Source of the DNA: an uncultured Methanomassiliicoccales archaeon
GTDB lineage: Archaea > Thermoplasmatota > Thermoplasmata > RBG-16-68-12 > JAJISG01
Reading direction: 5' to 3'
Assembly (NCBI GenBank): GCA_964347325.1
Contig: CAYFYA010000008.1
Coordinates: 23,719-87,718 of the forward strand
Length of the DNA: 64,000 bases
In this document: in pieces, positions 26,898 through 42,966 of the stretch
How the letters are laid out: each line of letters opens with the position of its first letter
Position numbering within the stretch: the first letter of the stretch is position 1
Translations under genes and position numbers: made by a program
The notes under the pieces: generated by a model
Seen by the model: only the letters and a program-made list of their open reading frames with translations
What the model was told of the DNA's origin: nothing
Databases searched by the model: none

Positions 26898-28472
26898 TTA
26901 GGGTTCGCTGGTGTCTTTGCTCGCGACAAAGATCATCTGAAGGGTCCGCGGATGGGGGGAGAAGGTCAAGACGGGAAGGCCCAGAGATGCGTATGCAGAG
27001 GGGTAGTCGTGAATCCATGCGTTCCTGCCGCTGGACCCGGTGGCGTAGCTCTCGTACCAGTCCAAATTGACGACATGCCGCTTCGCCACCCGAACCATCT
27101 CGGCGAGCGCGTTTAGAAAGCTTTCGGGCGGCAGGTGCATGAGAACTTCCGATGCCAAGACTAGGTCGGCGCTTCCACTCTTGAAGGGCAAGAAACCAGC
27201 ATCACCCTGGACGAATGAGGCTCCATTGTCCCCCAGGAATCTAACGGCCGATCGCAGCTGATCTATGCTTATGTCGACGCCGCACCCTGCCGCCCCAGAC
27301 CGTTCGCTGAGCAGCCGCGTTATCCGACCGAAGCCACACCCGACCTCGATAAAGTCTTGGTACTCTAGAGTATTCAGGATTCTCCGAAGGCTCCCCTCCT
27401 GATCGCGCTTGCTCGGAAGGTCGTCTCGTTTCGGATGACCTCGGAACTCATCCAGGTAGCCCTTTCCTCTCTTGAGCCAATATCTGCTCGCAGCTGCCCT
27501 GTCCCACGAGCCGCCCGACAACAGGTCATAGTAGAGTTTGAGGAATCGACCTGCAACTCGCAGGTCTGAGTGAGTCTGCTTCACGTAGTCGCGGCCGGCA
27601 ATCCCGATCTCGGGCCACTCCTCTCGCCGTCCCATCAGGTCCCGAAGAACGCTGCTGAGCCGGTCTTGCGGAGAGACACGAACGATGGGAAGCTCTCCGT
27701 AGAAGTCGGGGTTAAAGGAACTCACCACGACCTTCCCCAGTGACATGCCCTCGACAGAGACCATGCTGTAGATACCATACGGCATTATCTGATCTACCAC
27801 GATGTCACAACGGCTCATCAGATCCAGAGCTCGTTCGTGAGGAACCCCTTCAACAACCCACAGCTCCGCGTCCTCCGACACGTGCTTCCTTACTTCAGCG
27901 TCCTGAATGTTCGACATGCCCTTCTCACCAACAAACTTGTCGAACTCCTGGACCACTTCCGCAGTTCCCTTCATTGCCCGTCTCGACGGGAAGTGACCAA
28001 TAATGACCTTCCGTTCACGTCCCGGCGGCATTAGCTCCCGAGGCAATGGAAACGGGTTGGGGATCCATTGAGCCTGCGGCACAAACTGCGTGAGATCCGG
28101 AGTTGAGCAGACGACTGCGTCCGCCCATCCAACATGGTGCAGACCGCGGCCGGTTCGTGTTTCAGTGCCGTGAAGATGGACAAGGATCGCCGTTTCTGGG
28201 AACACCCTTCGGAGGAGTCCGTAGCCTACCTGGCTTAACCAGATGCCACCGTGGATGTGAATCACGTGAGCCTGCTGGAAAACCCTCCAGCGTCTCAGCA
28301 CCTCCACATTCCAGGACAGAGGGTCCCCGTGCGTTCGCAGGATCACGTCCCCAGGCCACACCGACTCCATGTCCTTCCGAATGAGAACGGTCACATCGTG
28401 ACCCAAGGACTCTTGAGCTCTGGCTAGGTACCAGGCAACGTTGGCTATGTTGTTGACGTGGACTATCCTCAT
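26898..28472 (-). CDS. Fusion protein: N-terminal GT4-like glycosyltransferase fused to a C-terminal class I SAM-dependent methyltransferase
   Basis: The N-terminal roughly 320 aa are GT-B-like. The C-terminus carries 'EVGCGFGRITRLL' (SAM motif I) and 'ADLVLASEVLMHLP'. Confidence 0.65.
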   Translation of the reverse strand: MRIVHVNNIANVAWYLARAQESLGHDVTVLIRKDMESVWPGDVILRTHGDPLSWNVEVLRRWRVFQQAHVIHIHGGIWLSQVGYGLLRRVFPETAILVHLHGTETRTGRGLHHVGWADAVVCSTPDLTQFVPQAQWIPNPFPLPRELMPPGRERKVIIGHFPSRRAMKGTAEVVQEFDKFVGEKGMSNIQDAEVRKHVSEDAELWVVEGVPHERALDLMSRCDIVVDQIMPYGIYSMVSVEGMSLGKVVVSSFNPDFYGELPIVRVSPQDRLSSVLRDLMGRREEWPEIGIAGRDYVKQTHSDLRVAGRFLKLYYDLLSGGSWDRAAASRYWLKRGKGYLDEFRGHPKRDDLPSKRDQEGSLRRILNTLEYQDFIEVGCGFGRITRLLSERSGAAGCGVDISIDQLRSAVRFLGDNGASFVQGDAGFLPFKSGSADLVLASEVLMHLPPESFLNALAEMVRVAKRHVVNLDWYESYATGSSGRNAWIHDYPSAYASLGLPVLTFSPHPRTLQMIFVASKDTSEP

Positions 28473-28701: not shown

Positions 28702-29778
28702 GTGGCGCTGATGAAGGTGGCCAGCATCGTCGGGGCTCGGCCGCAATTCGTCAAGGCGGCCATGGTCTCCAGGCTCCTGCGTCGCCGCCACAAGGAGTGT
28801 CTTATCCATACGGGTCAGCACTACGACGAGAATCTGAGCAAGGTCTTCTTTGAGGTTTTGGACATTCCAGAGCCGGACATCAACCTAGGCATTGGCTCGG
28901 CACCCCACGGGGCCCAAACGGGGAGAATGCTGGAGGCTGTGGAGGCAATCCTCATTGAGGAGGAGCCGGAGATGGTGCTGGTGTACGGCGACACCAACTC
29001 CACCCTCGCAGGAGCCCTCGCCGCCGCGAAGCTCTGTCAGAGAGTGGCTCACGTGGAGGCTGGTGTAAGAAGCTTCAACTGGACCATGCCAGAGGAGATC
29101 AATAGGCTACTGGCGGACAGGATCTCGAACCCCCTCTTCTGTCCTACGCAGAAGGCGGTGGAGAACCTCCACGGTGAGGGCATAACCGATGGGATCCATC
29201 TAGTGGGCGATGTCATGTACGACAGCGTTCTCCGCTACTCGCCGGCGGCGCGTTCGAGGCATGCCTGCGGACAGTACGGCCTAAGCGGAAAGGACTACGT
29301 TCTCCTGACAATCCATAGACCGGCGAATGCGGAGCAGCCTGATCGCTTGAAGACAATCCTCGATTCGATCGCCTCCACAGGAGTAAAGGCCCTTTTCCCG
29401 GCCCATCCAAGGACACGCAGGGTCCTAGAGACCTCTGGAATCTCCGGAGCGTTTGGCGATAGGATGATGATTGTGGACCCTGTTGATTATCTCACGTTCC
29501 TTTCGCTCCTCATAGACTCGGAGAAGGTCATCACGGATAGCGGCGGGGTGCAGAAGGAGGCCTACGTCTTGGAAGTCCCGTGCATAACACTGAGGGAGGA
29601 GACCGAATGGGTGGAGACACTCGATGACGGCTGGAATACGATCGTGGGTGCCGACCCTAAGAGGATTGTCAAGGCCATAAGAAGCTCCCCCGTGGGCCGT
29701 CCTCGACCGGAAGTTTACGGTGACGGGCAGGCCGCCAATAAGGTGGTCGGAGTTGTGGAGCAGGCTCTGAACGGTTAG
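28702..29778 (+). CDS. wecB: UDP-N-acetylglucosamine (or UDP-GlcNAc3NAcA) 2-epimerase, non-hydrolysing (WecB/WbpI family)
   Basis: 'ARPQFVKAAMV', 'HTGQHYD', 'VLVYGDTNSTLAGALAAAKL' and 'HVEAGVRSFN'. Confidence 0.85.
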   Translation: MALMKVASIVGARPQFVKAAMVSRLLRRRHKECLIHTGQHYDENLSKVFFEVLDIPEPDINLGIGSAPHGAQTGRMLEAVEAILIEEEPEMVLVYGDTNSTLAGALAAAKLCQRVAHVEAGVRSFNWTMPEEINRLLADRISNPLFCPTQKAVENLHGEGITDGIHLVGDVMYDSVLRYSPAARSRHACGQYGLSGKDYVLLTIHRPANAEQPDRLKTILDSIASTGVKALFPAHPRTRRVLETSGISGAFGDRMMIVDPVDYLTFLSLLIDSEKVITDSGGVQKEAYVLEVPCITLREETEWVETLDDGWNTIVGADPKRIVKAIRSSPVGRPRPEVYGDGQAANKVVGVVEQALNG

Positions 29779-29812
29779 AACCAACATCGGACTCCGCCGC
29801 GCCCTCTATCGC

Positions 29813-30946
29813 CTAAGCGAGACCAAGACGTTTGTAGATTCCGAGGAGTCTCTCTTCCTGGGCCCCCCAGTTGAACTCCTCGAGGGCGCGCTGCAAAGCC
29901 CTCTTTCCGAGTGTCTCACGGAGACCTGGGTCATCCCGCAATCTGATGAGACCGTCCCGAACACCGTCCAGGGAATGCTCCACAGCGAATCCAACTCCAT
30001 GTTTCTCAGTGAACTCAGCCAGATAAGTGTCCTTCGACACCAGAATGGGACGCCCGCACGCCATGGCCTCGAAGAGCTTGTTTCCCACCCCGATGGAGTT
30101 GTTCCTGTCCCGTGGATCGGTAAGACACACGACCGCGTCGGCCGCGAGGGTCATTGGAAGCACGTCTCTCTGGGCCACTTTCCCGACGAACTCTGCGTTG
30201 GGGACGATCCAGCACGCCTTCCGGACCGCCTCGAGGTAGTGGTCCTTCCCGAAGCCTGCCACGACTAGCCTCACCCCCTCAAGTACGTCCACAGCCTCGA
30301 TGAGCTCCAGGATGAATCTAGCGCGATTCAGCGTCCCGATGTAGACAAGCGTGAGGACGTCGTTTTTCGGCGGGGTGTATTCCCTAACCATGGGGGGCTT
30401 GGCGTTTAGTACGAGGCTCACGGGTGCAGAGGTGAGCTCCTCGAAGTACTCCTTGATCGGTTCGCTGACAGTTATCACCGCATCGACGTCCTTGACGAGG
30501 CGCTTCTCCTTCCGAAGGAAGTGGCTGGCGATGACGCCGGGCACGTCTCTCCCCACCATGTAGCCCCAGATTTCGTGGGCGTCGTAGAGGAGGGGCATCC
30601 CCGCACCACGCTTCAGCCAAACTCCCGTGGGAAGGGTGTCCAGGTCATGGCAGTGGACCACTGAGAAGGACGAGTCTCGATGGAGCTCCATCGCGCGGGC
30701 GTAGGCGAGGCGCCACCAAGGCCTAAGGCGGAGGAGGTCTCGGCGGAGGAACCGCATGTAGGGCGTGTTGCGCAGTCGAACGATGCTCACGCCATCGGTC
30801 TCCTCACGGGGAAATTGGGAGAGACGGTCCCACGCGATGATGGTGACATCATACCCGTGCCGAGAGAGGCTCTGAGCCTCGATGGTCACTCGAGGATCGT
30901 GGGTCACGGGATTGGCGACTATCATCAAGACTGAATCGTCGACCAC
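29813..30946 (-). CDS. Family 4 glycosyltransferase
   Basis: GT-B C-terminal domain with 'EAMACGRPILVS'. Confidence 0.8.
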   Translation of the reverse strand: MVDDSVLMIVANPVTHDPRVTIEAQSLSRHGYDVTIIAWDRLSQFPREETDGVSIVRLRNTPYMRFLRRDLLRLRPWWRLAYARAMELHRDSSFSVVHCHDLDTLPTGVWLKRGAGMPLLYDAHEIWGYMVGRDVPGVIASHFLRKEKRLVKDVDAVITVSEPIKEYFEELTSAPVSLVLNAKPPMVREYTPPKNDVLTLVYIGTLNRARFILELIEAVDVLEGVRLVVAGFGKDHYLEAVRKACWIVPNAEFVGKVAQRDVLPMTLAADAVVCLTDPRDRNNSIGVGNKLFEAMACGRPILVSKDTYLAEFTEKHGVGFAVEHSLDGVRDGLIRLRDDPGLRETLGKRALQRALEEFNWGAQEERLLGIYKRLGLA

Positions 30947-31057
30947 TAGCTCACCAGTCGGGACTCGGAAGCATCACCCGGGACCAATGTAACGTTATCG
31001 CTGCGCTCCGAGCCTCTCGGAATCTCTTTAAGGCGAGGGCAGCTTTCGTGAGACTCG

Positions 31058-31597
31058 ATGGGTATTTACATACACAAGACGGCCGAAGTCTCCGACGAGG
31101 CGGAGGTCGGAGACGGGACCTTTGTGTGGCACCAGGCCCAGATTCGCGAGAGGGCGAAAGTCGGTCGTAACTGCAGGCTCGGCAAAGGGGTCTACATCGA
31201 CAAGAACGTCGTCGTGGGAGATGACTGCAAAATCCAGAACGGGGCGACAGTGTATGACGGAGTAACCCTGGAGGACGAGGTATTCGTCGGTCCTCACGCC
31301 GTGTTCACCAACGACCTGCGCCCCAGGGCCAGACCCGATGAATGGGAGATCGTGCCCACCCTCGTGAAGAGGGGAGCATCCATTGGGGCCAACGCGACCA
31401 TTCTCTGTGGCGTCACCATCGGGTCGTACGCGGTCGTGGGGGCTGGCGCCGTCGTCACCCGCGATGTCCCCGCCTACGCCGTCGTCTACGGGGTTCCCGC
31501 CAAGCTGCGGGGCTATGCATGTGACTGCGGGAGGCCCCTGGACGAGAACATGTACTGCTCTCATTGTCAGAAGGAAGTCCTCGTAGAAGGTGTGTAG
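31058..31597 (+). CDS. Hexapeptide-repeat sugar N-acetyltransferase (WbpD/WlbB-like) with a C-terminal Cys4 tail
   Basis: Left-handed beta-helix repeats 'VGDGTFVWHQAQI..VGRNCRLGKGVYI..VGDDCKIQNGATV'. C-terminal 'CDCGRPLDENMYCSHC'. Confidence 0.8.
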   Translation: MGIYIHKTAEVSDEAEVGDGTFVWHQAQIRERAKVGRNCRLGKGVYIDKNVVVGDDCKIQNGATVYDGVTLEDEVFVGPHAVFTNDLRPRARPDEWEIVPTLVKRGASIGANATILCGVTIGSYAVVGAGAVVTRDVPAYAVVYGVPAKLRGYACDCGRPLDENMYCSHCQKEVLVEGV

Positions 31598-32690
31598 CCT
31601 GATCCCCATCGCGAGGCCCGTCTTGGAGGAGGAAGAGAAGAATGCCGTCCTCCGAGTCCTCGAGTCGGGTCACCTCGTACAGGGAGCGAAGGTGGAGGAG
31701 TTCGAGGCACTCTTCTCTGACTTTGTCGGGACAAAGGGCGCAGTGGCGACGAACTCCGGGACGTCAGCCATCCACACCGCCCTCACTGCCTTGGGTGTAG
31801 GACCAGGGGACGAGGTGATACTGCCCGCTATCACATTCTTCTCGTGCGCCGCAATGGTGGCGGCCTGCGGGGCCACCCCCGTCGTGGTGGATGTGGAACG
31901 GGAGGACTACACGATGAGTCCCGCGGAGGCGGCGGTGGCCGTGAACCCGGCCACCAAGGCTCTGATGCCAGTCCACATCTACGGACAGCCAGCGGATATG
32001 GGGGCGATCCTGGACCTGGCGAGCGATCACGACATCGCCGTCTTGGAAGATGGTTGCCAGTCCCATGGAGCGCGGTACGAGGACTCGATGGTGGGGTCCA
32101 TGGGGAGCGTCGGCTGCTTCAGCTTCTACCCGTCAAAGATCATGACCACGGGGGAGGGCGGGATGCTGGTCACGAACGATGAAGAGGTGGCGGAACACTC
32201 CCGGATGTTTCGCAATCATGGTGCCCGCGCGAAGTACAGCCACGAGATTCTCGGCTTCAACTACAGAATGACGGACCTGGCGGCCGCCCTGGGCATCGAA
32301 CAGCTTCGGAGGGTCGATAACTTTATCGATGCGAGGACCCGCAATGCAGCCCTCTTGAGCAACGGCCTCGCAGGTATCGACGGACTCACCCCGCCGGAGG
32401 TCCAGGTGGGTCGAACCCACGTTTTCTACCAGTACGTTATCCGCGTGACGGAGGAATACCCGCTGGGGAGGGATGAGGTGATGGCTCGTCTTGGGCAGAA
32501 GGGGGTGGAGAGCCGCCCCTCCTACCCGATGCCCATCCACCGGCAGAGAGCTTTCGAGGGCGTGGGCCGGGCCGCGGATTGTCCCGTCGCAGAGGCGGTC
32601 CTACCGCAGATGCTGGAAATTCCGGTCCATCCCAGCCTGACGTCGGAGGACCTGGAGACCATCGTGGAGGCAATCTCTAGCCTCTCGTAG
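31590..32690 (+). CDS. DegT/DnrJ/EryC1-family PLP-dependent sugar aminotransferase (WbpE-like)
   Basis: Family-typical N-terminus 'PIARPVLEEEEKNAVLRVLESGHLVQG'. Four-base overlap with the upstream acetyltransferase gene. Confidence 0.85.
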   Translation: MCSLIPIARPVLEEEEKNAVLRVLESGHLVQGAKVEEFEALFSDFVGTKGAVATNSGTSAIHTALTALGVGPGDEVILPAITFFSCAAMVAACGATPVVVDVEREDYTMSPAEAAVAVNPATKALMPVHIYGQPADMGAILDLASDHDIAVLEDGCQSHGARYEDSMVGSMGSVGCFSFYPSKIMTTGEGGMLVTNDEEVAEHSRMFRNHGARAKYSHEILGFNYRMTDLAAALGIEQLRRVDNFIDARTRNAALLSNGLAGIDGLTPPEVQVGRTHVFYQYVIRVTEEYPLGRDEVMARLGQKGVESRPSYPMPIHRQRAFEGVGRAADCPVAEAVLPQMLEIPVHPSLTSEDLETIVEAISSLS

Positions 32691-32730
32691 TCCTGCGAAG
32701 CCTTTATCGCTGGCTCGCCCATCGGCGAGG

Positions 32731-33750
32731 TTGTTGACGCGAGTTGGGGTCATAGGCACGGGATCTATGGGCCAGAACCACGCCCGCGTCTACTCCGAGT
32801 TGGCGGAACTTGCGGGAGTGTGTGACTCGGACCCGGCCGTCGGTGAACCCACAGCGAAGAGATTCGGCGCCACCTTCTTCCAGGACTTCGAGAAGCTGCT
32901 GAGACTCGACCTGACGGCTGTCAGCATCGCCACACCGACGACTCTCCACTTCGACATGGCGAAGGCGGCCCTCGAGGGGGGTGTCCACGTCCTCCTGGAG
33001 AAGCCGTTCACAGGCGATGTTGGAAAGGCAAGGACCCTGGCGGAGATAGCGGCGGACCAAGGGCTCGTGCTCGCCGCGGGGATGGTCGAACGGCACAACC
33101 CCTGCGTGGAGTTCGCCCACGAGGCTCTTCGGGAGGGGCGATTCGGGAAGCTCATAACTGTCTCCTCCAGGCGAGTGAGCGCCTTCCCAACCCGCATTCG
33201 CGACGTGGGCGTGATGATGGACCTCGGGATTCACGACGTGGATGTAATGCGGTACCTCGTCGGCGATGAGGTGGTGGGGGTCTACAGTGTGGGAGGCAGG
33301 GAGCGCCACGAGTCATACGAGGATTATGCCACAGCCCTCCTCACGTTCCGTAATGGTGTCAGCGGCGTGGTCGAAGTCAACTGGCTGACCCCCATGAAGG
33401 TCAGGAAACTCTCCCTCACGTGCCTCAAGAACTTCGTCGAGCTGGACTACATCAATCAGACGGTGGATATATCCTCTTCCAGGCTCATGAAGTACGACCC
33501 CTCGGACCTGTATCAGGCACCCTTCGAGTACGACGTACGGCAGGTTGCACTCGAGAAGCAGGAGCCTTTGAGGAGGGAGATCATGGACTTCCTGGGAGCC
33601 GTCGAGGGACGTCACAGCCCCCTTGTTGATGGGACGGAGGCCGCCCTGAATCTCACTGTTGTTGACGCGATCGTGGAGTCCCGGGCCAAGGGAGTGCCTG
33701 TGGAGATCTCTCAGGCGGGGCCCGGCCTCCCTAGGCCGAAGAATCGATAG
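32731..33750 (+). CDS. Gfo/Idh/MocA-family oxidoreductase (WbpB-like UDP-GlcNAcA 3-dehydrogenase)
   Basis: 'RVGVIGTGSMGQNHARVY' NAD-binding N-terminus. Confidence 0.8.
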   Translation: MLTRVGVIGTGSMGQNHARVYSELAELAGVCDSDPAVGEPTAKRFGATFFQDFEKLLRLDLTAVSIATPTTLHFDMAKAALEGGVHVLLEKPFTGDVGKARTLAEIAADQGLVLAAGMVERHNPCVEFAHEALREGRFGKLITVSSRRVSAFPTRIRDVGVMMDLGIHDVDVMRYLVGDEVVGVYSVGGRERHESYEDYATALLTFRNGVSGVVEVNWLTPMKVRKLSLTCLKNFVELDYINQTVDISSSRLMKYDPSDLYQAPFEYDVRQVALEKQEPLRREIMDFLGAVEGRHSPLVDGTEAALNLTVVDAIVESRAKGVPVEISQAGPGLPRPKNR

Positions 33751-35003
33751 CCCCTCCCCTCCAACGCCTCTCGTGGGGCAACTCCCCGGCAGTCCACTAG
33801 GGCGCGACGATTCATTCTCGTCGCCAATGCCTCCCAGTCGATTTCGCGATAGTCGTCGTGAGCCGTCACCAGAACGACGCAATCCGCCCCTTCAGCAGCT
33901 TCTTCGAGGTCCTGCCACAAGTCGACACCCTCGATCGCCACCACGTGGGGGTCGTGGAGGCGCACCGTAGCACCAAGCGACTCAAGGTCTCGATGCAGCC
34001 TCACTCCGGGGGAGTTTTTGGTCTCGGCGACGTTCTCCTTATAGGCACCTCCCAGCAACAGAATCCGCGCGCCCTTCAATCCCTCACCACCAACGGCCTG
34101 AGTGACGAGGCGCGTGACGTGGTCGAGCATCCCATCATTCACCTCCCTGGCTGCAAGCATCAATCGAGCTTCATCTCCCACGGATGAAGCCAGGAGCCAG
34201 GTATCCTTCGGGATGCAGTGTCCCCCAACGCCGGGTCCTGGCATCAGCATGGACCTTCCTGGACAGGTGTTGACGAGCTGCCGCACCTCCAGCACATCAG
34301 CTCCCGCATGTTCACAGATGAGGGCCACCTCGTTGGCGAAGGCGAGCTCGACATCTCGATAGGCGTTTTCGACCGTCTTGGAAAGCTCGGCATGAAGCCA
34401 GTCTGTCTCGTGGAGGCGGCCCGTGCAGATGTCGCCATACAGCTCGATGGCACGACGCCTACTCTCCTCATCCTCACCACCGATGGCCCTGTCAAGGGTG
34501 GTCAGGTTCTGGAGGAGCCTTCCAGCTGTCACCCTCTCGGGGCAGTGAACGAGGTGGAAGTCCTCATGGACCCTGAGTCCGGAGCGTTCTTCGAGAAGAG
34601 GGCACACCAAGTTCCTCATCGTTCCGGGAACCAGGGTCGACTCAACGGAGACGAGTACACCCTTTCTCATGTGGATCGTAACGGTCTCGAGGGCAGATCT
34701 CAGGGCTGAGAAGTCAGGCTCGTGGGTGGCAGGGTCCACGGGAGTGTCGACGGCGACGATGATGGCATCGACGTCCTCCGACGCCTCGAGCGACTCGGTG
34801 GCCTTCAGCCTGCCCTTTGCGACTACATCCGCGATCATTGCCTCCAAACCGGGTTCCCTCGTGGGGAAGGGGCTGTTGCCGCCGTTGAGGGTCTCGACCC
34901 TTCCTGGGTCTATGTCAACCCCGACTACGGTGTGGCCCGCATTGGCCAACGAAGCCGCGACGGGAACGCCTACGTATCCCAGCCCGACGACCAGGATCTT
35001 CAT
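33711..35003 (-). CDS. UDP-N-acetyl-D-glucosamine/mannosamine 6-dehydrogenase (WbpA/WecC family)
   Basis: 'MKILVVGLGYVGVPVAASLA' and catalytic Cys 'GGHCIPKDTWLL'. Confidence 0.85.
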   Translation of the reverse strand: MKILVVGLGYVGVPVAASLANAGHTVVGVDIDPGRVETLNGGNSPFPTREPGLEAMIADVVAKGRLKATESLEASEDVDAIIVAVDTPVDPATHEPDFSALRSALETVTIHMRKGVLVSVESTLVPGTMRNLVCPLLEERSGLRVHEDFHLVHCPERVTAGRLLQNLTTLDRAIGGEDEESRRRAIELYGDICTGRLHETDWLHAELSKTVENAYRDVELAFANEVALICEHAGADVLEVRQLVNTCPGRSMLMPGPGVGGHCIPKDTWLLASSVGDEARLMLAAREVNDGMLDHVTRLVTQAVGGEGLKGARILLLGGAYKENVAETKNSPGVRLHRDLESLGATVRLHDPHVVAIEGVDLWQDLEEAAEGADCVVLVTAHDDYREIDWEALATRMNRRALVDCRGVAPREALEGRGYRFFGLGRPGPA

Positions 35004-35075: not shown

Positions 35076-35750
35076 TCACTTCTCGGCGAGAACGATGAGG
35101 TCCGTCGCGAGCGTCGGGAACCTCGAGAAGACGGCTCGATCCAGATACGTGACCGCTCGAAAACCGTAGTCGCCCAAGGAGGCCCCTTCGCGTCTCTTCA
35201 CTCGAAATCCGTTTGAGGTCAACAGCTCAAGGAGGGCGCGGGGCGTGAAGAGCTTCACGTGTCCAAAGGGACGTTCCTTCCTCCTCACGCCCAGCAAGGA
35301 GCCGACTGCGAACTCCAATGAGGGCTCCATGTGGACGGGCTGATAGCCCATTGGGAGTAGGAGGCGATTCATCCAGCTGGCCAGATTGGGGGTAGAGAGG
35401 ATGAGGTGACCCCCTCTCTTGAGGACGCGGTAGCTATTCCTGATGAGGTTGTCACCGTTGACCAGATGTTCCACAACCTCTACGGCGCTCACGAGGTCGA
35501 AGTGGTCGTCATCGAACGGGAGATCCTCCGCTCCCAGATCCAACCGTATCCCGCGAATCCCCGTCGGCAACCTGGCGAGATGCGTGTCCGAAATGTCGAC
35601 ACAGTAGACCTCCTCGCTTCCCACCACGGATGAGATCCGGGCGGCAAGCTGACCATCTCGCCCCCCCAGGTCTATGTAGCGGGGGGCGGAAATGGCAGCA
35701 TCTGAAAGGACACCCACGACCCTCTCGTGAACGCTTCCCGGCACGCCCAA
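35076..35750 (-). CDS. Class I SAM-dependent methyltransferase
   Basis: 'YIDLGGRDGQLAARI' (motif I) and 'FDLVSAVEVVEHL'. Confidence 0.75.
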   Translation of the reverse strand: MGVPGSVHERVVGVLSDAAISAPRYIDLGGRDGQLAARISSVVGSEEVYCVDISDTHLARLPTGIRGIRLDLGAEDLPFDDDHFDLVSAVEVVEHLVNGDNLIRNSYRVLKRGGHLILSTPNLASWMNRLLLPMGYQPVHMEPSLEFAVGSLLGVRRKERPFGHVKLFTPRALLELLTSNGFRVKRREGASLGDYGFRAVTYLDRAVFSRFPTLATDLIVLAEK

Positions 35751-35910: not shown

Positions 35911-36399
35911 TCAGAGGCTGATCGAGCGCAGAAACTGGAAGTCACTTTCGATGAGTGAAGTGAATGTGGTCTCCAGATTGTGGGGCGACTGGCCCTGATA
36001 GACGATGGAGTAGAGGGGGATATCGAGGTGCTCCCTCAGGGCGGCGACGCGTCGACAGTTCTCGGGATAGTCGTCGACGAACAGTACTGCGGGAGGTATG
36101 ATCCCGCGCTCCTTCAACTTCCATAGCGCATGCCGGACCTGATAGTCTCTGGGCCGATAGTCGGCGAAGACCCCCTGAAAGTACCCCGTGAGCTGGAACC
36201 CTTCGAGAAGTCCATGGACCACATGAGGGGGGTTTCGGCTGCAGAGGAACGGCAAGACCCCACGGCGGATCAGCTGCCTCAGCATGACGGGGATCTTATC
36301 CTCAGTCAACTCCCGGGGCGGGTCGCTGGTCACAACGGTGTCCTCGAGGTCCAACACGATGAGCAAGTCGCGCAGACTCGCGGGGCCTTCGTTAGACAT
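35911..36399 (-). CDS. Putative HAD-like hydrolase/phosphatase
   Basis: 'LIVLDLEDTVV' and 'VLFVDDYPEN' resemble HAD motifs I and IV. The match is weak. Confidence 0.35.
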   Translation of the reverse strand: MSNEGPASLRDLLIVLDLEDTVVTSDPPRELTEDKIPVMLRQLIRRGVLPFLCSRNPPHVVHGLLEGFQLTGYFQGVFADYRPRDYQVRHALWKLKERGIIPPAVLFVDDYPENCRRVAALREHLDIPLYSIVYQGQSPHNLETTFTSLIESDFQFLRSISL

Positions 36400-36410
36400 G
36401 GTGCATCATT

Positions 36411-37510
36411 CTACGCAGCGCTGTCTTCCAGTGGGAAGATGCGTCCCTCGTGCTCAAAAAGCTCGAAGTAGACCCGTTCAAGGCGGAGGTCGTATAGAAT
36501 CCGCGGCCGGAAGTTGAAGTCGAACTTCCTCAAGGCCATGTCCAGGATCAGCTCCGGTATGTTGACGCCTGCGCCGACCGAAATGACGGTCGTTCCCTGG
36601 AGCCTGGGGTTTATCTCGATGGGGTAGTAGGTCCCAGGGTTGGTGGAGGACTGACGGAACTGGAGGCCCACCGAGTACGAAAATCCGAAGGCCTCGATTA
36701 CCTTCCTGACATAATCTGCCGTAGAGTCCGATAGCTGCTCCACGACGCCCGTCACCGTGATGCCCCCCACCATCCTCTCCCTTCGCCGGGCGACGATGGC
36801 GAAGGTCCTCCCCTTGTAGCTGAGCACGTCGAGGGTGTACTCCGGCTCACCCAAGAACTCCATTACGAGCATTTCCGGGAACTCCTCTCCTAGCACGGCA
36901 AGGAGGTCGTCCGCAGTCATGTACGTGGAGGTGGGCTTCTCTTCGAAGAAGAGCCTCCGTCGGTCGACCTTGGAGTCGAGGACCCTGAAGCCGCGGCTCC
37001 CGCTGGCGTGGGCGGGCTTCACCACGACGGGCACCTCAGGATATCCGAGTTCCTCCACGGCCTCCTCGACCTGGGACCTAGTGGTTGCCACCCTATACTC
37101 GGGTACAGGCAGTCCCGCCACCTCTCTTAGGTACTCCAGCATCCTCAGCTTGTTGATGGCCGTCTCCATCAGGTCAGCATCGGGAGTCACGACGGCGGCC
37201 ACGGTCCCCGCCTCCTCGAACTCCCGCAGATGACGGCAGATGGGAACCTGGTCGTCCGTCCGGATTGGCAGGATAACGTCCACCTTCTCCTTCTGGCAGA
37301 CCTTCACTAGCTCGCTTGCGAACTCAGGACTCCTGTTGTCGGGGAGGGTGTAGGACTCGTCGGCATAGTAGGGGCCCTTCAGGTTCTCCTTCCAATCGGT
37401 GCCTACGATCTTCAGACGGTACTTGTCGCTGAGCCGCAAGGAGCGGACTATGCTGGAGAACCCTGGGGCGTCCGACCCCGTCACGAGGACCGTTAGTTCT
37501 CGCGGCACAC
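36411..37510 (-). CDS. ATP-grasp family carboxylate-amine ligase (the listed ORF is extended at its 5' end; probable GTG start near 37510)
   Basis: 'VVVKPAHASGSRGFRVL', 'LVMEFLGEPEYTLDVL' and 'YPIEINPRLQGTTVIS' match ATP-grasp nucleotide-binding motifs. Confidence 0.7.
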
Positions 37511-38152
37511 TCACGGCCAGACCCACCTTATGACCTCGAAGGCCTCGGCGTACTCGACTTGAATCTGGGTCCCACGCGTTACTGCCAGGGACCTGATGAA
37601 CTCCGGCTTTAGGTAGGGATGGTGGCGCTGGGACTTGTAACACGAGAGGGCCTCGACCTTCTTCTGCACGTGCTTGTCCTCCAAGATGGTGAAGCAGTTC
37701 GTGGGGAACGAGATGTTGTTCCAGGGCAGCTCATACCCCAGAAGGCACGTAGTCTTGAAGGCCCTCACGCCCTCGTTGTTCAAAACCTGGTGGTCCTGAT
37801 GGACGTCCTGAGTGGAAGGCAGGAACACGAGATCTGGGTGGAGATCCTTCTTGAGCTTTACCAGGCTCTCCAAGATCTCCTGACGGTGATAGGAGAATGT
37901 CCGCACCTCGTGGGGGAGAACGTGAACACGCTCTTGGGGCACCTGCAGGACGTCCATGGCATTCCGTAGCTCCCTCTCGAGGGTGTCGGCCGGGAGATCA
38001 GCGGGGAGGGACTTGGCGGCGTTGGAGAAGGCGTGATAGTAGACCTCGACACCCCTCTCCACCAGGCGGGCGATGGTCCCGCCGAGTCCCAGTTCACCGT
38101 CGTCAGTGTGGGGTGACAGCACCAGGACGTGCTCGAATCTCTCAACAGTCAT
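37511..38152 (-). CDS. PIG-L/LmbE-family N-acetylglucosaminyl deacetylase
   Basis: 'LVLSPHTDDGELGLGGTIARL' matches the PIG-L zinc-binding motif. Confidence 0.8.
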   Translation of the reverse strand: MTVERFEHVLVLSPHTDDGELGLGGTIARLVERGVEVYYHAFSNAAKSLPADLPADTLERELRNAMDVLQVPQERVHVLPHEVRTFSYHRQEILESLVKLKKDLHPDLVFLPSTQDVHQDHQVLNNEGVRAFKTTCLLGYELPWNNISFPTNCFTILEDKHVQKKVEALSCYKSQRHHPYLKPEFIRSLAVTRGTQIQVEYAEAFEVIRWVWP

Positions 38153-38202: not shown

Positions 38203-39351
38203 TTAGTGCTGGCGGGTCAGTAGGAGGTTCTGATATGCCTCCACGAGCCTCCTTCTCATGGACTCCCACTGGTACCTCTCGCTGAAGGCGCGGGAACCCC
38301 TAGTCGCCATAGAGCTTCGGCCCTTGAGGTCTCCCAACAGCTCCCCGATGACCCTTCGGATCTCTCGGACATCGTCGTGCTTGACGCAGATACCCACACC
38401 CTCCCTCTCAACAAGCCCGGCATTGGCGGTCCCGTGGCTCGCAAGTGCCGGTATGCCCAGTGCCATGGCTTGCAGCAGGCGGGTGGAGGTTCCCACCCGG
38501 TTGATTCCGTAGGCGGGGTCGTCGAGGAGGAGGACGAGATCGGCGGCTGCGACGTACGAGGCAATCTGCTCGGGAGGGATCCAGCCCACAAACTCCACGT
38601 TCTCCATCCGGGAGCACCTGGCGGCAATGGTCTCCGCCAGAGTCCCGCTACCTCCGATGATGAGGGCCACATCCTCCATCCCGTCGAACACTTCGATGAT
38701 GGTGTCCAGGTTCCGGGACCTCTCCAGCATGCCGATGTAGACGCACACGCCCTTCCCCGACAGGCCGAGCCGCTCCCGCATGACCACCGAGTCGATAACC
38801 TCAAGCTCTTCGGGCATTGGACTGTTCATTACGACGACGACCCGCTTCGACCCCATGCCAAGGTACGCCTCTCGCAGCACGTCGTTGACGGTGATGACGA
38901 GTTCTGGCCCCTTTGCAAGCCTCCTCTCCATCCACTTCAGCAGACGAAGTACAGGACCTGGGGTGTTGTCCCTCACCATCTCCGAGTACAGCTCGTGGGC
39001 GTCGAAGACGCAGGGAACGCTTCTCAGCCTCGCGGCGAAGAGGCCGAGGGGAAGGGTGTCGAAGTCGTGGCAGTGGACAAGCCTGAAGCGGGCCTTGAGC
39101 AACCGCCGCAGCATCCTCGACCACACCAAGGGGAGCTTCACGAGGAGCTCCAGAAAGTTGTCGTAGCCCGCCCGCATCCAGATCCGGTTGACCTGGATGT
39201 TGTCGACATCCTCCCGGCGGGGGAGGCTCGACTCCCTGTCCCAGGCCAGGAGGAGTATGTCGTATCCTTCCTCCGTCAGGACCAGTGCCTCCCTACGGAC
39301 GCGAGCATCTGGACGATACGCGTTGGACAGGAGCATGACGACATCCAGCAA
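38203..39351 (-). CDS. Family 4 glycosyltransferase
   Basis: GT-B fold with 'LQAMALGIPALASH'. Confidence 0.8.
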   Translation of the reverse strand: MLDVVMLLSNAYRPDARVRREALVLTEEGYDILLLAWDRESSLPRREDVDNIQVNRIWMRAGYDNFLELLVKLPLVWSRMLRRLLKARFRLVHCHDFDTLPLGLFAARLRSVPCVFDAHELYSEMVRDNTPGPVLRLLKWMERRLAKGPELVITVNDVLREAYLGMGSKRVVVVMNSPMPEELEVIDSVVMRERLGLSGKGVCVYIGMLERSRNLDTIIEVFDGMEDVALIIGGSGTLAETIAARCSRMENVEFVGWIPPEQIASYVAAADLVLLLDDPAYGINRVGTSTRLLQAMALGIPALASHGTANAGLVEREGVGICVKHDDVREIRRVIGELLGDLKGRSSMATRGSRAFSERYQWESMRRRLVEAYQNLLLTRQH

Positions 39352-39940: not shown

Positions 39941-42286
39941 CTAGTGGACTTCTCCGTGACCGTACCTGTGGGGGTCTGCGTCGAAGGTCTCCTTGCAGTG
40001 GGCGCTGCAGAAGTAGAAGACCACGCCCGCGTGTTCTGAGCTACCGTAGGCCGTGTCGGGATTGACGTCCATTCCGCAAACTGGGTCCTTCGCCATGGTG
40101 GGCCTCCTTTCCTCCCACTTCGTGATGGTGGGTCGGAATCTCTTCAGCAATAAAGAGTTAGCTACAACCGTTGTAGAGGAGAACCCCATGGCGGCCCCGG
40201 CGAAGATAGGGTCCAGCAGCAGGCCAACGAGGGGGTATAGTATACCGGCCGCCACCGGGATGAGGGCCGTGTTGTAGGCGAAGGCCCAGAACAGGTTCTG
40301 TCGTATCTTGGAGTACGTCCTGCGGCTGAGTTGAATGGAGGCCACCACATCCCGGAGGTCGTCCTTCACCAGGACGATGCCGCCCGCCTCCCTGGCGACG
40401 TCTGTGCCGCTGCCGATGGCGATCCCCACATCCGCTTGAGCGAGGGCTGGGGCGTCGTTGATCCCGTCCCCCACCATGGCGACGGAGTGGCCCTTAGCCT
40501 GGAGCTCCTTGACCTTCTCCGCCTTGTCCCCCGGAAGCACCTCGGCCATGACCTCCTCGATGCCAACCTGAGCGGCGACGGCCATGGCCGTCCTCTCGTT
40601 GTCCCCTGTCAGCATAACGGGCCGGATGTTCATGGCCTTGAGCGCCTCCAACACTTCCTTGGCGTGCTCTTTGGGCGCGTCGGCTACGGCGAAGACGCCC
40701 GCCAGTTCATCGTCGACGGCCAAGAGCATGACGGTCTTGCCCTGCTGCTCGAGACCCTGCATCGTGCTCTCCATCTTGGAGAGTTCGACCCCGCTCTCCT
40801 GCATCAGCTTCCGGTTGCCGAGGAGGACTTTCCTGCTCTTCACCTTGGCCCTGACTCCGTGGCCCGGTACCGCCTTGAACTCCTCAGGGTCCACAGCCGC
40901 GATGCCGACCTCCTCCGCCTTTCGCAGTATCGCCTGGGCTAGGGGATGTTCAGAACCCTTCTCGGCCCCTGCGGCGAATCCGTAGACCTCCTCCACCGGA
41001 AGGCCCACGGGCACGACGTCAATCACCTCCGGCCTTCCCTTAGTGAGGGTTCCGGTCTTGTCGAAAATCACGATGTCTAGCTTGCGGGCCTTCTCCAGGT
41101 GCTCCCCTCCTTTGATGAGCAGGCCATTCTCGGCCCCCATGCCAGTGCCGACCATGATGGCGGCTGGGGTAGCGATTCCCAGGGCACATGGACAGGCGAT
41201 AATCAGGACGGCCACGAAGACCGTCAGACTGAATGTGAAGGAGGAGAGCTCGACAGGGGGAGTCCAGAGCCCGGTTCCTATGAAGTACCAGAACAGGGCG
41301 GCGATGATGGCAACGCTGATGACCGCCGGGACAAAGTAGCCCGCAACGACGTCTGCCAACCTCTGGATGGGGGCCCTGGACTCCTGGGCCTCCTCCACCA
41401 GGTGGATGATCTGGGCCAGCGTGGTGTCCTTCCCCACCTTGGTGGCCCTGAACTTCAGCATCCCGGTCTTGTTGATGGTGGCGCCGATGACCTCGTCCTC
41501 CAGCCCCTTCTCCACCGGAAGGGACTCGCCAGTAATCATAGACTCGTCCAGGGCTGACTGACCCTCCAGGATGACCCCATCCACGGGGACCTTCTCGCCC
41601 GGACGGACTACGACGATCTCACCCACCTCCACCTGCTCTACTGGGACCTCGACCTCCTCCCCATCACGGATGACTTTGGCCATCCTCGGGGCGAGGTCCA
41701 TCAGCCGGCGGATGGCCTCCGAGGCTCTCCCCTTGGCCTTCTCCTCGAAGAAGCGGCCCAGGAGGATGAGGGAAATGATGAAGGCCGCCGTGTCGAAGAA
41801 GACCGCCTCGCTGGCGAAGAAGGTCGGGAGGAATGTGACGACGGTGCTGTACCCGTAGGCGGCGCTGGTCCCCACGGCGATGAGGAGGTCCATGTTGGCG
41901 ACGCGATTCTTGAGGGCGTCCAAGGAACCGCGGTAGTATCGCCATCCTGCGACGAACTGCACGGGGGTGGCGAGGGCGAAGAGGACGAAGTTGCGGATGG
42001 CGGGCTCGAGGATGGGCAGTATGCTAAGGATGAGTATGGGTATCGAGAGGGAGAAGCTCAGGACGAGGAGCCGCTTGAGATGCCCGAGCTCCTTCGCCGG
42101 CTCCTTGAAGGTCAGCAGGCAGGTCTCGCTGCAGAAGAAGTAGTCTTTGCCATCCACAGTGGCCACTAGCTTGACCTTCGTCTCGTCCACGTACATGCCG
42201 CACACTGGGTCCTTCGCCAAGACTACCTCCTTGTGGAGAGAAGACCCGGTCGTACTTAAGCGGTGTCTACACGAGGCCTGGGCCAT
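39941..42286 (-). CDS. copA: Heavy-metal (Cu+) translocating P1B-type ATPase with N- and C-terminal TRASH/YHS metal-binding domains
   Basis: '[11 protein letters not shown]' (CPC), 'DKTGTLT', 'GDGINDAP'. N-terminal '[16 protein letters not shown]' and C-terminal '[16 protein letters not shown]'. Confidence 0.9.
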
Positions 42287-42411: not shown

Positions 42412-42966
42412 ATGGCTAAGAAGGCCGATAGGGCGAAACTCAAGATTTGCCTCGCCGGTGAGGCCGCCGTGGGGAAGACCTCCCTTATCCGTCGATTCGT
42501 CTACGACCAGTTCGACGAGAAGTACACCGTGACCCTGGGGGCCAAGGTGACTAAGAAGACGGTAACCTTCAAGGGCAAGAAGGGCGACCTCGAGGTGGAC
42601 CTAGCCATCTGGGACATCATGGGCGAGAAGTTCCTTCGAGAACTGCTCCGGGAAGCCTATTTCTACGGCGCCCAGGGAATCCTCGCGGTTTGCGACGTCA
42701 CGAGGGCGGAGACCCTTGTCGACTTAGAGGACTGGAAGACAGCGATTGAGAAGGTAGTCGGGAAGGTGCCAGTGATCGTCCTGGCCAACAAGTCCGACTT
42801 GGTGGACGAGACGGTCATCGACGAGAAAGGCCTCAAGCTCTTCTGCGAAGAGTGGCACTGTCCCTATCTCCTCACCAGCGCCAAGGAGGGGGACAACGTG
42901 GAGAAGGCCTTCCAGGATATTGCGGACACGGTGCTGGAAGGCATCACCGCCGAACGCATTGCCTGA
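42412..42966 (+). CDS. Ras-superfamily small GTPase (Rab/Ran-like)
   Basis: G1 'GEAAVGKTS', G2 Thr in 'YTVTLG', G3 'WDIMG', G4 'NKSD', G5 'TSAK'. 184 aa, with no lipidation motif. Confidence 0.8.
   Translation: MAKKADRAKLKICLAGEAAVGKTSLIRRFVYDQFDEKYTVTLGAKVTKKTVTFKGKKGDLEVDLAIWDIMGEKFLRELLREAYFYGAQGILAVCDVTRAETLVDLEDWKTAIEKVVGKVPVIVLANKSDLVDETVIDEKGLKLFCEEWHCPYLLTSAKEGDNVEKAFQDIADTVLEGITAERIA

Follow-up and report, generated by a model that had tools for sequence, protein, structure and literature searches.

O-antigens, capsules, flagellin glycans, and archaeal glycans commonly contain amino sugars in which an aminoacyl or a hydroxyacyl group stands in place of the acetyl group, and, to our knowledge, most of the enzymes that install these groups have yet to be identified. 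The removal of an acetyl group followed by a new acylation is carried out by the pairs LpxC/LpxD in lipid A, NodB/NodA in Nod factors, MshB/MshC in mycothiol, and BshB/BshC in bacillithiol. LpxD-type and GNAT enzymes are N-acyltransferases, and in lipid A synthesis LpxD acylates the amine freed by the deacetylase. Threonine-amidated uronic acids occur in the glycans of Methanococcus, and AglU of M. maripaludis serves the attachment of threonine to ManNAc3NAmA. In the HS:2 capsule of Campylobacter jejuni, the ATP-grasp domain of Cj1438 (Cj1438C), which was described as TupA-like, ligates serinol-phosphate or ethanolamine-phosphate, and the HAD phosphatase Cj1435 dephosphorylates the product (PMC11800379). 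In the type B flagellin glycan of Clostridioides difficile, a peptidylamido (N-acylated amino) sugar depends genetically on CDR20291_0245, a carbamoyl phosphate synthase (CPSase)-like ATP-grasp protein whose gene adjoins that of a DegT-family sugar aminotransferase (PMC5207246). Here we analyzed a 64,000-nucleotide stretch of archaeal DNA (contig CAYFYA010000008.1, positions 23,719 to 87,718; the whole stretch is hereafter called the window), in which the genes of a PIG-L deacetylase, an ATP-grasp ligase, and a HAD-like protein lie next to each other in an island of glycan genes. We propose, at about even confidence, that this trio serves to exchange the N-acyl group on an amino sugar in the glycan made by the island.

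Results

The three genes form a recurrent cassette

The preliminary description of the window had located the trio at 35911-38152, and all three open reading frames (ORFs) were indeed present there on the minus strand:

37511-38152, minus strand: PIG-L/LmbE-family putative N-deacetylase, 213 amino acids, the first gene of the cassette.
36411-37514, minus strand: ATP-grasp carboxylate-amine ligase, 367 amino acids, GTG start.
35911-36399, minus strand: HAD-type phosphatase, capless, MDP-1/HAD-IIIC-like, 162 amino acids.

The three family labels given at that time were right as well, as seen from the Pfam matches of PIG-L and the ATP-grasp protein and from the HAD motifs in a 14-member alignment. 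The mechanically called ATP-grasp ORF spans 36411-37643 (410 amino acids) and overlaps the PIG-L gene by 133 nucleotides. On reading the DNA, the start was placed at the GTG at 37514-37512, which is fused with the PIG-L stop codon as GTGA and gives an overlap of 4 nucleotides. The same 367-amino-acid product and the same 4-nucleotide overlap were found in an independent gene call, made on the same sequence in another assembly. The stop codon of the ATP-grasp gene and the start of the HAD-like gene are 12 nucleotides apart.

To survey the neighborhoods of the ATP-grasp gene, the loci of its close homologs, 80 genome loci, and two plasmid loci were clustered and annotated, with ORFs in the fetched loci called by a simple longest-ORF rule; the final table holds 89 loci. 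A PIG-L homolog was present in 55 of the 85 loci of the initial tblastn screen. In the table, PIG-L was found within 5 kb of the ATP-grasp gene in 13/15 Asgard, 1/5 haloarchaeal, 36/59 Bacteroidota, and 6/10 other loci, and the HAD-like gene stood directly downstream of the ATP-grasp gene in 13/15 Asgard loci. Since each partner is kept in 13 of the 15 Asgard loci, the trio is a tightly coupled cassette, far from a chance arrangement. The PIG-L and ATP-grasp genes also overlap in loci L001, L003, L087, and L089, and the ATP-grasp and phosphatase genes overlap or abut in L003, L005, L087, and L088. The cassette also occurs in other archaea, in bacteria, and in virus-like contigs. Outside the Asgard archaea, the order deacetylase, ATP-grasp, phosphatase recurs with a different phosphatase, and related arrangements were observed as follows:

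L087, Halorarum / Halobaculum: PIG-L, ATP-grasp, PHP phosphoesterase; overlapping genes.
L092, ANME-1: PIG-L, ATP-grasp, PHP.
L019, Levyibacteriota: PIG-L, ATP-grasp, PHP, then directly WbpB/D/E-like genes.
L025, Woesearchaeota: PIG-L, ATP-grasp, PHP.
L089, archaeal metagenome-assembled genome (MAG): HAD-IA, PIG-L, ATP-grasp.
L005, L086, and L088, Halopenitus, Halorubellus, and relatives: ATP-grasp, HAD-IA.
L032, Breznakiella: CE4-like protein, ATP-grasp, PHP, 6-dehydrogenase.
L090, Sinorhizobium pSymB: PHP, ATP-grasp.

The deacetylase is constant and its acylating partner varies

A second survey was anchored on PIG-L and covered 84 loci, 80 of them metagenomic and four from named assemblies; the gene downstream of PIG-L was readable in 68. 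As the immediate downstream neighbor, an LpxD-like left-handed-beta-helix N-acyltransferase was found in 19 of these 68 loci, the ATP-grasp family of the window in 17, a WbqC-like protein in 7, and a 3-hydroxyacyl-CoA dehydrogenase in 2. A representative of the LpxD-like proteins passed the PRK00892 cut-off (209.5 bits vs 207). The WbqC-like protein was encoded within three genes of PIG-L in 14 loci, often with a GNAT acyltransferase lying between the two or fused. PIG-L is therefore the constant hub of these loci, and the acylating enzyme is its variable partner. Such a pattern, with one deacetylase kept throughout and the acylating enzymes beside it interchangeable, is the mark of an N-acyl exchange.

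The PIG-L subfamily was also found on 50 contigs of the IMG/VR collection (L177-L226), which are virus-like by virtue of that collection only; WbqC-like proteins accompanied it in 16, the ATP-grasp protein in 7, and LpxD-like proteins in 6.

The phosphatase follows the ATP-grasp gene

The HAD-like protein had been given no role in the preliminary description, and its specific coupling to the ATP-grasp gene proved to be a key feature of the cassette. Among the loci anchored on PIG-L, phosphatase homologs were detected in 12/18 loci of the ATP-grasp type and in 0/64 of the others (LpxD-like, WbqC-like, and other types; Fisher p = 2.2e-10), the counts being lower bounds because they depend on homology to the representatives in hand. 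When the third gene, which follows PIG-L and ATP-grasp, could be read (15 cases), it encoded a PHP phosphoesterase in 8 and a HAD protein in 3. Thus, the phosphatase is tied to the ATP-grasp gene and not to PIG-L.

The phosphatase slot is filled by non-homologous replacement. A HAD-IIIC-like protein takes it in Asgard archaea; a HAD-IA protein in three haloarchaeal loci, an archaeal MAG, and metagenomic contigs; and a PHP phosphoesterase in ANME-1, Halobaculum/Halorarum, Levyibacteriota, Woesearchaeota, Breznakiella, and Sinorhizobium. The presence of three unrelated or distantly related phosphatase types in one slot argues that the removal of a phosphate is required by the chemistry of the ATP-grasp enzyme.

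Directly downstream of PIG-L and ATP-grasp, two loci (L140:6678-8321 and L145:3138-4796) carry a PHP domain fused to a GT2 glycosyltransferase, in proteins of 547-552 amino acids. This fusion suggests that the dephosphorylation step is tied to glycan assembly or sugar transfer.

Family assignment of the three proteins

PIG-L matched Pfam PF02585 over residues 10-131 (67.7 bits vs a cut-off of 28.2). Its motifs PHTDD and HQDH align with the zinc/catalytic motifs in the structures of diacetylchitobiose deacetylase (Dac) and BC1534, and both motifs are invariant across 13 members of its subfamily. PIG-L is thus a member of the PF02585 family with intact catalytic residues, for which an N-deacetylase activity is predicted. 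The subfamily, of about 209 amino acids, is highly conserved, with 51-63% identity across Archaea and Bacteria; members within this range came from Petrotogales, ANME-1, Heimdallarchaeota, Deltaproteobacteria, and Cyclobacteriaceae. BshB and MshB were the best named matches of PIG-L, though below cut-off. An equivalence with BshB or MshB was rejected (BshB1, 59.2 bits vs 182.5; BshB2, 38.8 vs 195.25), and seven related PIG-L proteins likewise scored under the cut-offs of the BshB/MshB models.

The ATP-grasp protein matched the Pfam models ATPgrasp_Ter (87.1 bits vs 29.1), PylC-like_N (32.9 vs 27), and ATP-grasp_3 (31.7 vs 23.2). In an alignment with 23 homologs, K122, K166, E219, N302, and R304 were invariant and E300 nearly invariant; the E-x-N-x-R motif reads IEINPR, and the ATP/Mg-binding residues are intact. 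The AlphaFold2 model (predicted local distance difference test score, pLDDT, 93) has the ATP-grasp fold, and the 50 best Foldseek matches listed against the PDB were all ATP-grasp enzymes (E 5e-20 to 2e-15). The closest relative in the PDB was the structural-genomics protein 2pn1 (profile E = 7e-31, Foldseek E = 5e-20), followed by CarB, biotin carboxylase, PurT, PurK, L-amino-acid ligases (LAL), and PylC, with 16-20% identity and template modeling (TM) scores of about 0.6-0.67.

The preliminary description had set an assignment to Ddl or PurK as the outcome that would speak against a role in sugar modification. The protein falls in neither family: it scored 16.3 bits vs 245.65 for Ddl and 15.7 vs 327 for PurK, and PurT (32.1 vs 502), CPSase (21 vs 1027), and biotin carboxylase (23 vs 740) were rejected in the same way. 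The equivalog models for LysX, RimK, PylC, and pseudomurein ligase also stayed far under cut-off. Among the equivalogs of PRK12767 ('carbamoyl phosphate synthase-like protein'), the best was NF009402, with 124.8 bits vs 218, which indicates a relationship in which no sub-model is passed. Since all the curated equivalog models score far under cut-off, no specific function can be transferred to the ATP-grasp protein. It sits in a distinct 2pn1/PRK12767-like clade, whose genes lie among glycan genes in the majority of the loci inspected. The TupA-like family, to which Cj1438C was likened, was absent among the seven Pfam ATP-grasp families matched at E <= 0.01.

For the HAD-like protein, all matches to hidden Markov models were sub-threshold (TIGR01681 of HAD-IIIC, 23.2 bits vs 35.75; DUF2608, 20.2 vs 22.6; DUF705, 19 vs 20.4), the homolog search returned only the protein itself, and the sequence search of the PDB gave no match. 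When 14 distinct Asgard copies were aligned, motifs I (DxDxT), II (SRN), III (RPK), and IV ((V/I)DD..N) made up a complete capless HAD signature.

Variant loci

About 36 Bacteroidota loci (L044-L085, e.g. L048:9001-13516) carry the ATP-grasp and PIG-L genes about 3 kb apart in a fixed block, in the order ATP-grasp, AccA, FabK-like, NusG-like, PIG-L, iron-sulfur (Fe-S) protein, and amidase, with neither a phosphatase nor a glycosyltransferase. This block may have a different, possibly housekeeping, role. Two Bacteroidota proteins were considered as hidden phosphatases and rejected: one of 328 amino acids (f22) has no family match, and the other, of 176 amino acids (f32), is ArsR-like. In the Bacteroidia type D loci, a HAD gene lies two genes downstream; it encodes a YjjG nucleotidase beside adenylate kinase, and its presence was regarded as a coincidence.

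In loci that lack PIG-L, the deacetylase position is occupied by a family of 245-258 amino acids with CE4/NodB-like motifs (HDVD, HFSTH, RPP, and LTHPG), which was seen at L005:4876-5613, L086:5101-5877, L088:5204-5941, and in L032 upstream of 9001. Its Pfam match was borderline, and no match in the PDB was obtained. A clean replacement of PIG-L by this CE4-like protein in haloarchaea is unproven, as the two co-occur in L087 and L132.

Two Thorarchaeota loci (L016:9001-11852 and L017:7117-10056) harbor two paralogous ATP-grasp genes, with 31-45% identity to that of the window, around a single PIG-L gene; such a pair would suit two successive ligations. In five Thorarchaeota loci (L008, L010, L012, L015, and L017), a GlcD-like FAD oxidase and a CCG/Fe-S protein are encoded immediately after the cassette, downstream of the HAD-like gene. 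This pair may have to do with the supply of a 2-hydroxy or 2-oxo acid, or may reflect mere synteny.

On pSymB of Sinorhizobium meliloti (L090:4581-10934), the genes cysD, nodQ, cysQ, PHP, ATP-grasp, and epimerase/dehydratase follow one another, with glycosyltransferases and a formyltransferase-like gene alongside. The ATP-grasp homolog has about 26% identity to that of the window and matched 71 Sinorhizobium plasmid records. pSymB would offer a genetically tractable setting for the ATP-grasp and phosphatase pair.

The glycan island around the cassette

The preliminary description had also placed the trio beside a pathway for a 2,3-diacetamido sugar within a glycan island, and this context was borne out. 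The cassette belongs to a co-directional run of six minus-strand genes from 39351 to 33711, namely GT4, PIG-L, ATP-grasp, HAD-like, S-adenosylmethionine (SAM)-dependent methyltransferase, and 6-dehydrogenase. The genes around the cassette are as follows:

28702-29778, plus strand: UDP-N-acetylglucosamine (UDP-GlcNAc) 2-epimerase-family enzyme; Pfam Epimerase_2, 323.7 bits.
31058-31597, plus strand: hexapeptide N-acetyltransferase, WlbB/WbpD-like; best PDB match 3mqg, E = 1e-42; Pfam Hexapep.
31590-32690, plus strand: DegT-family sugar aminotransferase; Pfam DegT_DnrJ_EryC1, 419.5 bits.
32731-33750, plus strand: GFO/IDH/MocA oxidoreductase, UDP-GlcNAc 3-dehydrogenase-like; NF040723, 294 bits, under cut-off.
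33711-35003, minus strand: nucleotide-sugar 6-dehydrogenase, UDP-ManNAc/GlcNAc type; TIGR03026, 395.6 bits vs 189.8.
35076-35750, minus strand: SAM-dependent methyltransferase; Pfam Methyltransf_23, Methyltransf_11, and related; 160 nucleotides downstream of the HAD-like gene.
38203-39351, minus strand: GT4 glycosyltransferase; Pfam Glyco_trans_4_4, Glycos_transf_1, and related; ends 50 nucleotides upstream of PIG-L.

All five enzyme types for a UDP-2,3-diacetamido-2,3-dideoxy-hexuronate, i.e., the 3-dehydrogenase, the aminotransferase, the N-acetyltransferase, the 2-epimerase, and the 6-dehydrogenase, are thus encoded within 28702-35003. The best PDB match of the oxidoreductase was 7bvj (E = 4e-40), which we take to be GnnA, and 3q2k and 3q2i, presumably WlbA, were also matched. 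WbpE structures were among the PDB matches of the aminotransferase (217 bits), and 3mqg, matched by the N-acetyltransferase, is presumably WlbB. The island is predicted to hold the enzyme set that leads from UDP-GlcNAc3NAc to a ManNAc3NAcA-type sugar. The exact substrates are assigned conditionally, because the archaeal equivalog models score under cut-off; the 6-dehydrogenase, for instance, reached 322 bits, under the cut-off of the archaeal UDP-ManNAc dehydrogenase model.

Glycosyltransferases and a Wzx/MurJ-like flippase are encoded in the island as well. In many related loci the cassette has GT4- or GT2-type genes on its flanks, and the GT4 enzyme of the window may be the one that adds the sugar on which the cassette would act. 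The SAM methyltransferase is not conserved beside the cassette in other loci, and it is uncertain whether it belongs to the cassette. At 26898-28472 (minus strand), a protein of 524 amino acids is GT4-like in its N-terminal half and has a SAM-methyltransferase domain at the C-terminal end; it may be a combined glycosyltransferase and sugar methylase.

The G+C content of the window is about 61%, and the closest relatives of its proteins were found in Asgard MAGs (Hodarchaeales, Heimdall-, Thor-, and Promethearchaeota). At 42412-42966 (plus strand), a Ras-family small GTPase of 184 amino acids (Pfam Ras, 120.5 bits; Roc, 93 bits), a eukaryote-like signature protein, fits this Asgard affinity. 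Just beyond the glycan island, at 39941-42286 (minus strand), lies the gene of a 781-amino-acid protein which, from its translation only, resembles a P-type metal ATPase and has DPVCGM at both its N and C termini.

Discussion

Since the deacetylase stays constant while its acylating partners are exchanged, we propose that the three enzymes replace one N-acyl group by another. PIG-L would strip the N-acetyl group from a GlcNAc-derived residue and expose a free amine, as suggested by the chemistry of its family and by the partners of its subfamily. The group removed is probably the 2-N-acetyl of the GlcNAc3NAc / ManNAc3NAcA-type sugar from the neighboring pathway, or that of a GlcNAc glycoside. 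The ATP-grasp enzyme, to judge from the coupling of the genes, would turn a free carboxylic acid into an acyl phosphate and couple it to this amine, so that a new amide is formed. The HAD-type phosphatase would then take off a phosphate that travels with the substrate of the ATP-grasp enzyme. This phosphate would most simply come from a phosphorylated acyl donor, e.g., a phospho-amino acid or a phospho-hydroxy acid, a step proposed by analogy with the C. jejuni amidoligase, whose amine partners are phosphorylated. The putative end product is a surface-glycan amino sugar with an N-(aminoacyl or hydroxyacyl) group. An unmasking of an amine by PIG-L for further modification had been suggested before, and this predicted role is well supported, as the same subfamily is otherwise paired with LpxD-like proteins or with GNAT and WbqC-like proteins.

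Several observations weigh against the proposed N-acyl exchange. The substrate, the deacetylation site, and the acyl donor are all inferred, for the ATP-grasp clade and the PIG-L subfamily alike, and the structural neighbors of the modeled ATP-grasp protein (PurT, PurK, biotin carboxylase, L-amino-acid ligases, and PylC) are equidistant, which gives no hint of a substrate. A dedicated gene for a phosphorylated acyl donor was not found near the cassette; the search for one turned up only glycan-assembly genes. In the HAD-like protein of the window, motif I reads DLEDT, with Glu for the second Asp, and motif III reads RPR, with Arg for Lys; it is the sole member of the 14 with Glu at that position, and its activity may be impaired, weakened, or altered. 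Furthermore, no phosphatase was detected in the 59 Bacteroidota loci, and the ATP-grasp and phosphatase genes occur together without PIG-L in three haloarchaeal loci and in Sinorhizobium. Finally, genes for a 6-dehydrogenase and an AsnB-type amidotransferase recur near the ATP-grasp gene in Asgard and haloarchaeal loci, so that a sugar carboxylate would be available as an alternative substrate.

The last two points bear on the idea with which the preliminary description had started, namely that the C6 carboxylate of the 2,3-diacetamido uronic acid is activated by the ATP-grasp enzyme and joined in an amide to an amine such as an amino acid. In an extended form of this idea, PIG-L would act separately, and the amine might itself be phosphorylated (O-phospho-Thr/Ser, ethanolamine-phosphate, or serinol-phosphate) and be dephosphorylated afterwards by the HAD protein, as with Cj1438C/Cj1435. 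The sole biochemical precedent for an ATP-grasp enzyme with a phosphatase is indeed a uronate amidoligase, that of C. jejuni glucuronate (PMC11800379). The threonine-amidated uronic acids of Methanococcus glycans also speak for this idea. In addition to the loci without PIG-L, a 6-dehydrogenase homolog lies within 5 kb of the ATP-grasp gene in 7/15 Asgard loci, and two adjoin the Haloferax mediterranei homolog. However, this idea leaves unexplained both the tight and widespread coupling to PIG-L, the strongest partner of the ATP-grasp gene, and the pairing of the PIG-L subfamily with N-acyltransferases elsewhere. Moreover, the UDP-sugar 6-dehydrogenase was not enriched in the ATP-grasp-type PIG-L loci (2/18 vs 3/64, p = 0.30), and the ATP-grasp protein lies outside the TupA-like family of Cj1438C. 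C6 amidation is thus no longer the leading idea, and we regard it as rather unlikely.

An activation of formate or bicarbonate in the style of PurT, PurK, or biotin carboxylase would explain the coupling to PIG-L just as the N-acyl exchange does, because the exposed amine would be N-formylated or N-carboxylated; with formate, the reaction would amount to a formyl-tetrahydrofolate-independent swap of N-acetyl for N-formyl. The amine acceptors of PurT and PurK are phosphorylated molecules, and CarB, biotin carboxylase, PurT, and PurK are the closest characterized relatives in both structure and sequence. Nevertheless, this similarity is generic (16-20% identity, TM about 0.65) and equals that to the amino-acid ligases, the equivalog models all scored far under cut-off, and the phosphatase would have no clear role unless the sugar substrate were phosphorylated. 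We consider this activation improbable. A mycothiol-like logic, in which GT4, PIG-L, ATP-grasp, and HAD make a soluble aminoacyl-glucosaminide rather than a glycan decoration, seems quite improbable to us. In that order of events, a phosphorylated acceptor would be glycosylated by GT4 and then freed of its phosphate by the phosphatase, after which PIG-L would remove the acetyl group and the ligase would attach an amino acid. The four enzyme types do stand in one co-directional run in the window, GT4-like genes adjoin in Bacteroidota type A, Alicyclobacillus, and several Asgard loci, the best named matches of PIG-L are BshB and MshB, and the about 36 Bacteroidota loci with the fixed block have a housekeeping-like setting free of glycan genes. 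However, the BshB, MshB, BshA, and MshA models all scored far under cut-off, and the glycosyltransferase partner varies between loci, with GT2, GT4, or none at all. Flippases, polymerase-like proteins, and numerous transferases are encoded around the cassette; the phosphatase goes with the ATP-grasp gene and not with the glycosyltransferase; and the PHP-GT2 fusion points to glycan assembly. Very improbable, in our estimate, is a self-contained pathway for a soluble aminoacyl-glucosaminide that serves as a mycothiol- or bacillithiol-like low-molecular-weight thiol or as a protective solute, made up of GT4, PIG-L, ATP-grasp, and HAD and shared by Asgard archaea and many Bacteroidota (with their conserved block from ATP-grasp to PIG-L), in which the ATP-grasp enzyme would take the role of MshC or BshC.

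The surveys define a modular system in which a conserved PIG-L is joined by one of three alternative re-acylating partners, and in which the ATP-grasp partner brings its own phosphatase. If the N-acyl exchange is true, gene content could be used to predict the N-acyl sugar chemistry of thousands of glycan loci, among them loci of Asgard archaea and of virus-like contigs, and a second tailoring route by an ATP-grasp enzyme plus a phosphatase would stand beside the C. jejuni amidoligase. Cultured carriers allow direct testing, i.e., Alicyclobacillus spp., Breznakiella homolactica, Halopenitus persicus, Halobaculum sp. XH14, and Sinorhizobium meliloti. A search of the open-access literature gave no paper that mentions PIG-L and ATP-grasp together, and both the three-gene cassette of deacetylase, ATP-grasp, and phosphatase and the PIG-L hub with three partner types are undescribed in the searchable open literature. 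Already known, separately, are the deacetylate/re-acylate logic and the pairing of an ATP-grasp enzyme with a phosphatase in C. jejuni.

Compared with the C. jejuni system, the cassette would share the formation of an amide on a glycan sugar by an ATP-grasp enzyme, a phosphorylated partner, and the later removal of the phosphate by a HAD phosphatase, as predicted here from the genes; both lie in a polysaccharide locus. Cj1438 is an ATP-grasp-GT2 fusion, which is echoed by the PHP-GT2 fusions in the related loci. However, Cj1438C acts on the C6 carboxylate of glucuronate with no deacetylase, whereas the deacetylase is the most conserved partner here. The C. difficile protein CDR20291_0245, which we liken to the present ligase by description only, is annotated with Pfam ATP-grasp_4 and has a FemAB-like protein and an ornithine cyclodeaminase as partners instead of PIG-L and a phosphatase. 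The setting of AglU in M. maripaludis is similar in that it concerns an archaeal N-glycan with the same type of 2,3-diamino uronic acid pathway alongside; no Methanococcus protein was among the ATP-grasp homologs listed. With LpxC/LpxD, NodB/NodA, MshB/MshC, and BshB/BshC, the proposed exchange would share the removal of the 2-N-acetyl group of a GlcNAc derivative and its replacement by another acyl group or an aminoacyl group. MshB and BshB themselves belong to the PIG-L enzymes, and LpxD-like proteins are an alternative partner of the window's own PIG-L subfamily. The difference would lie in the re-acylation, which is assigned here to an ATP-grasp enzyme with a dedicated phosphatase, whereas MshC is aminoacyl-tRNA-synthetase-like and LpxD and NodA use acyl carriers.

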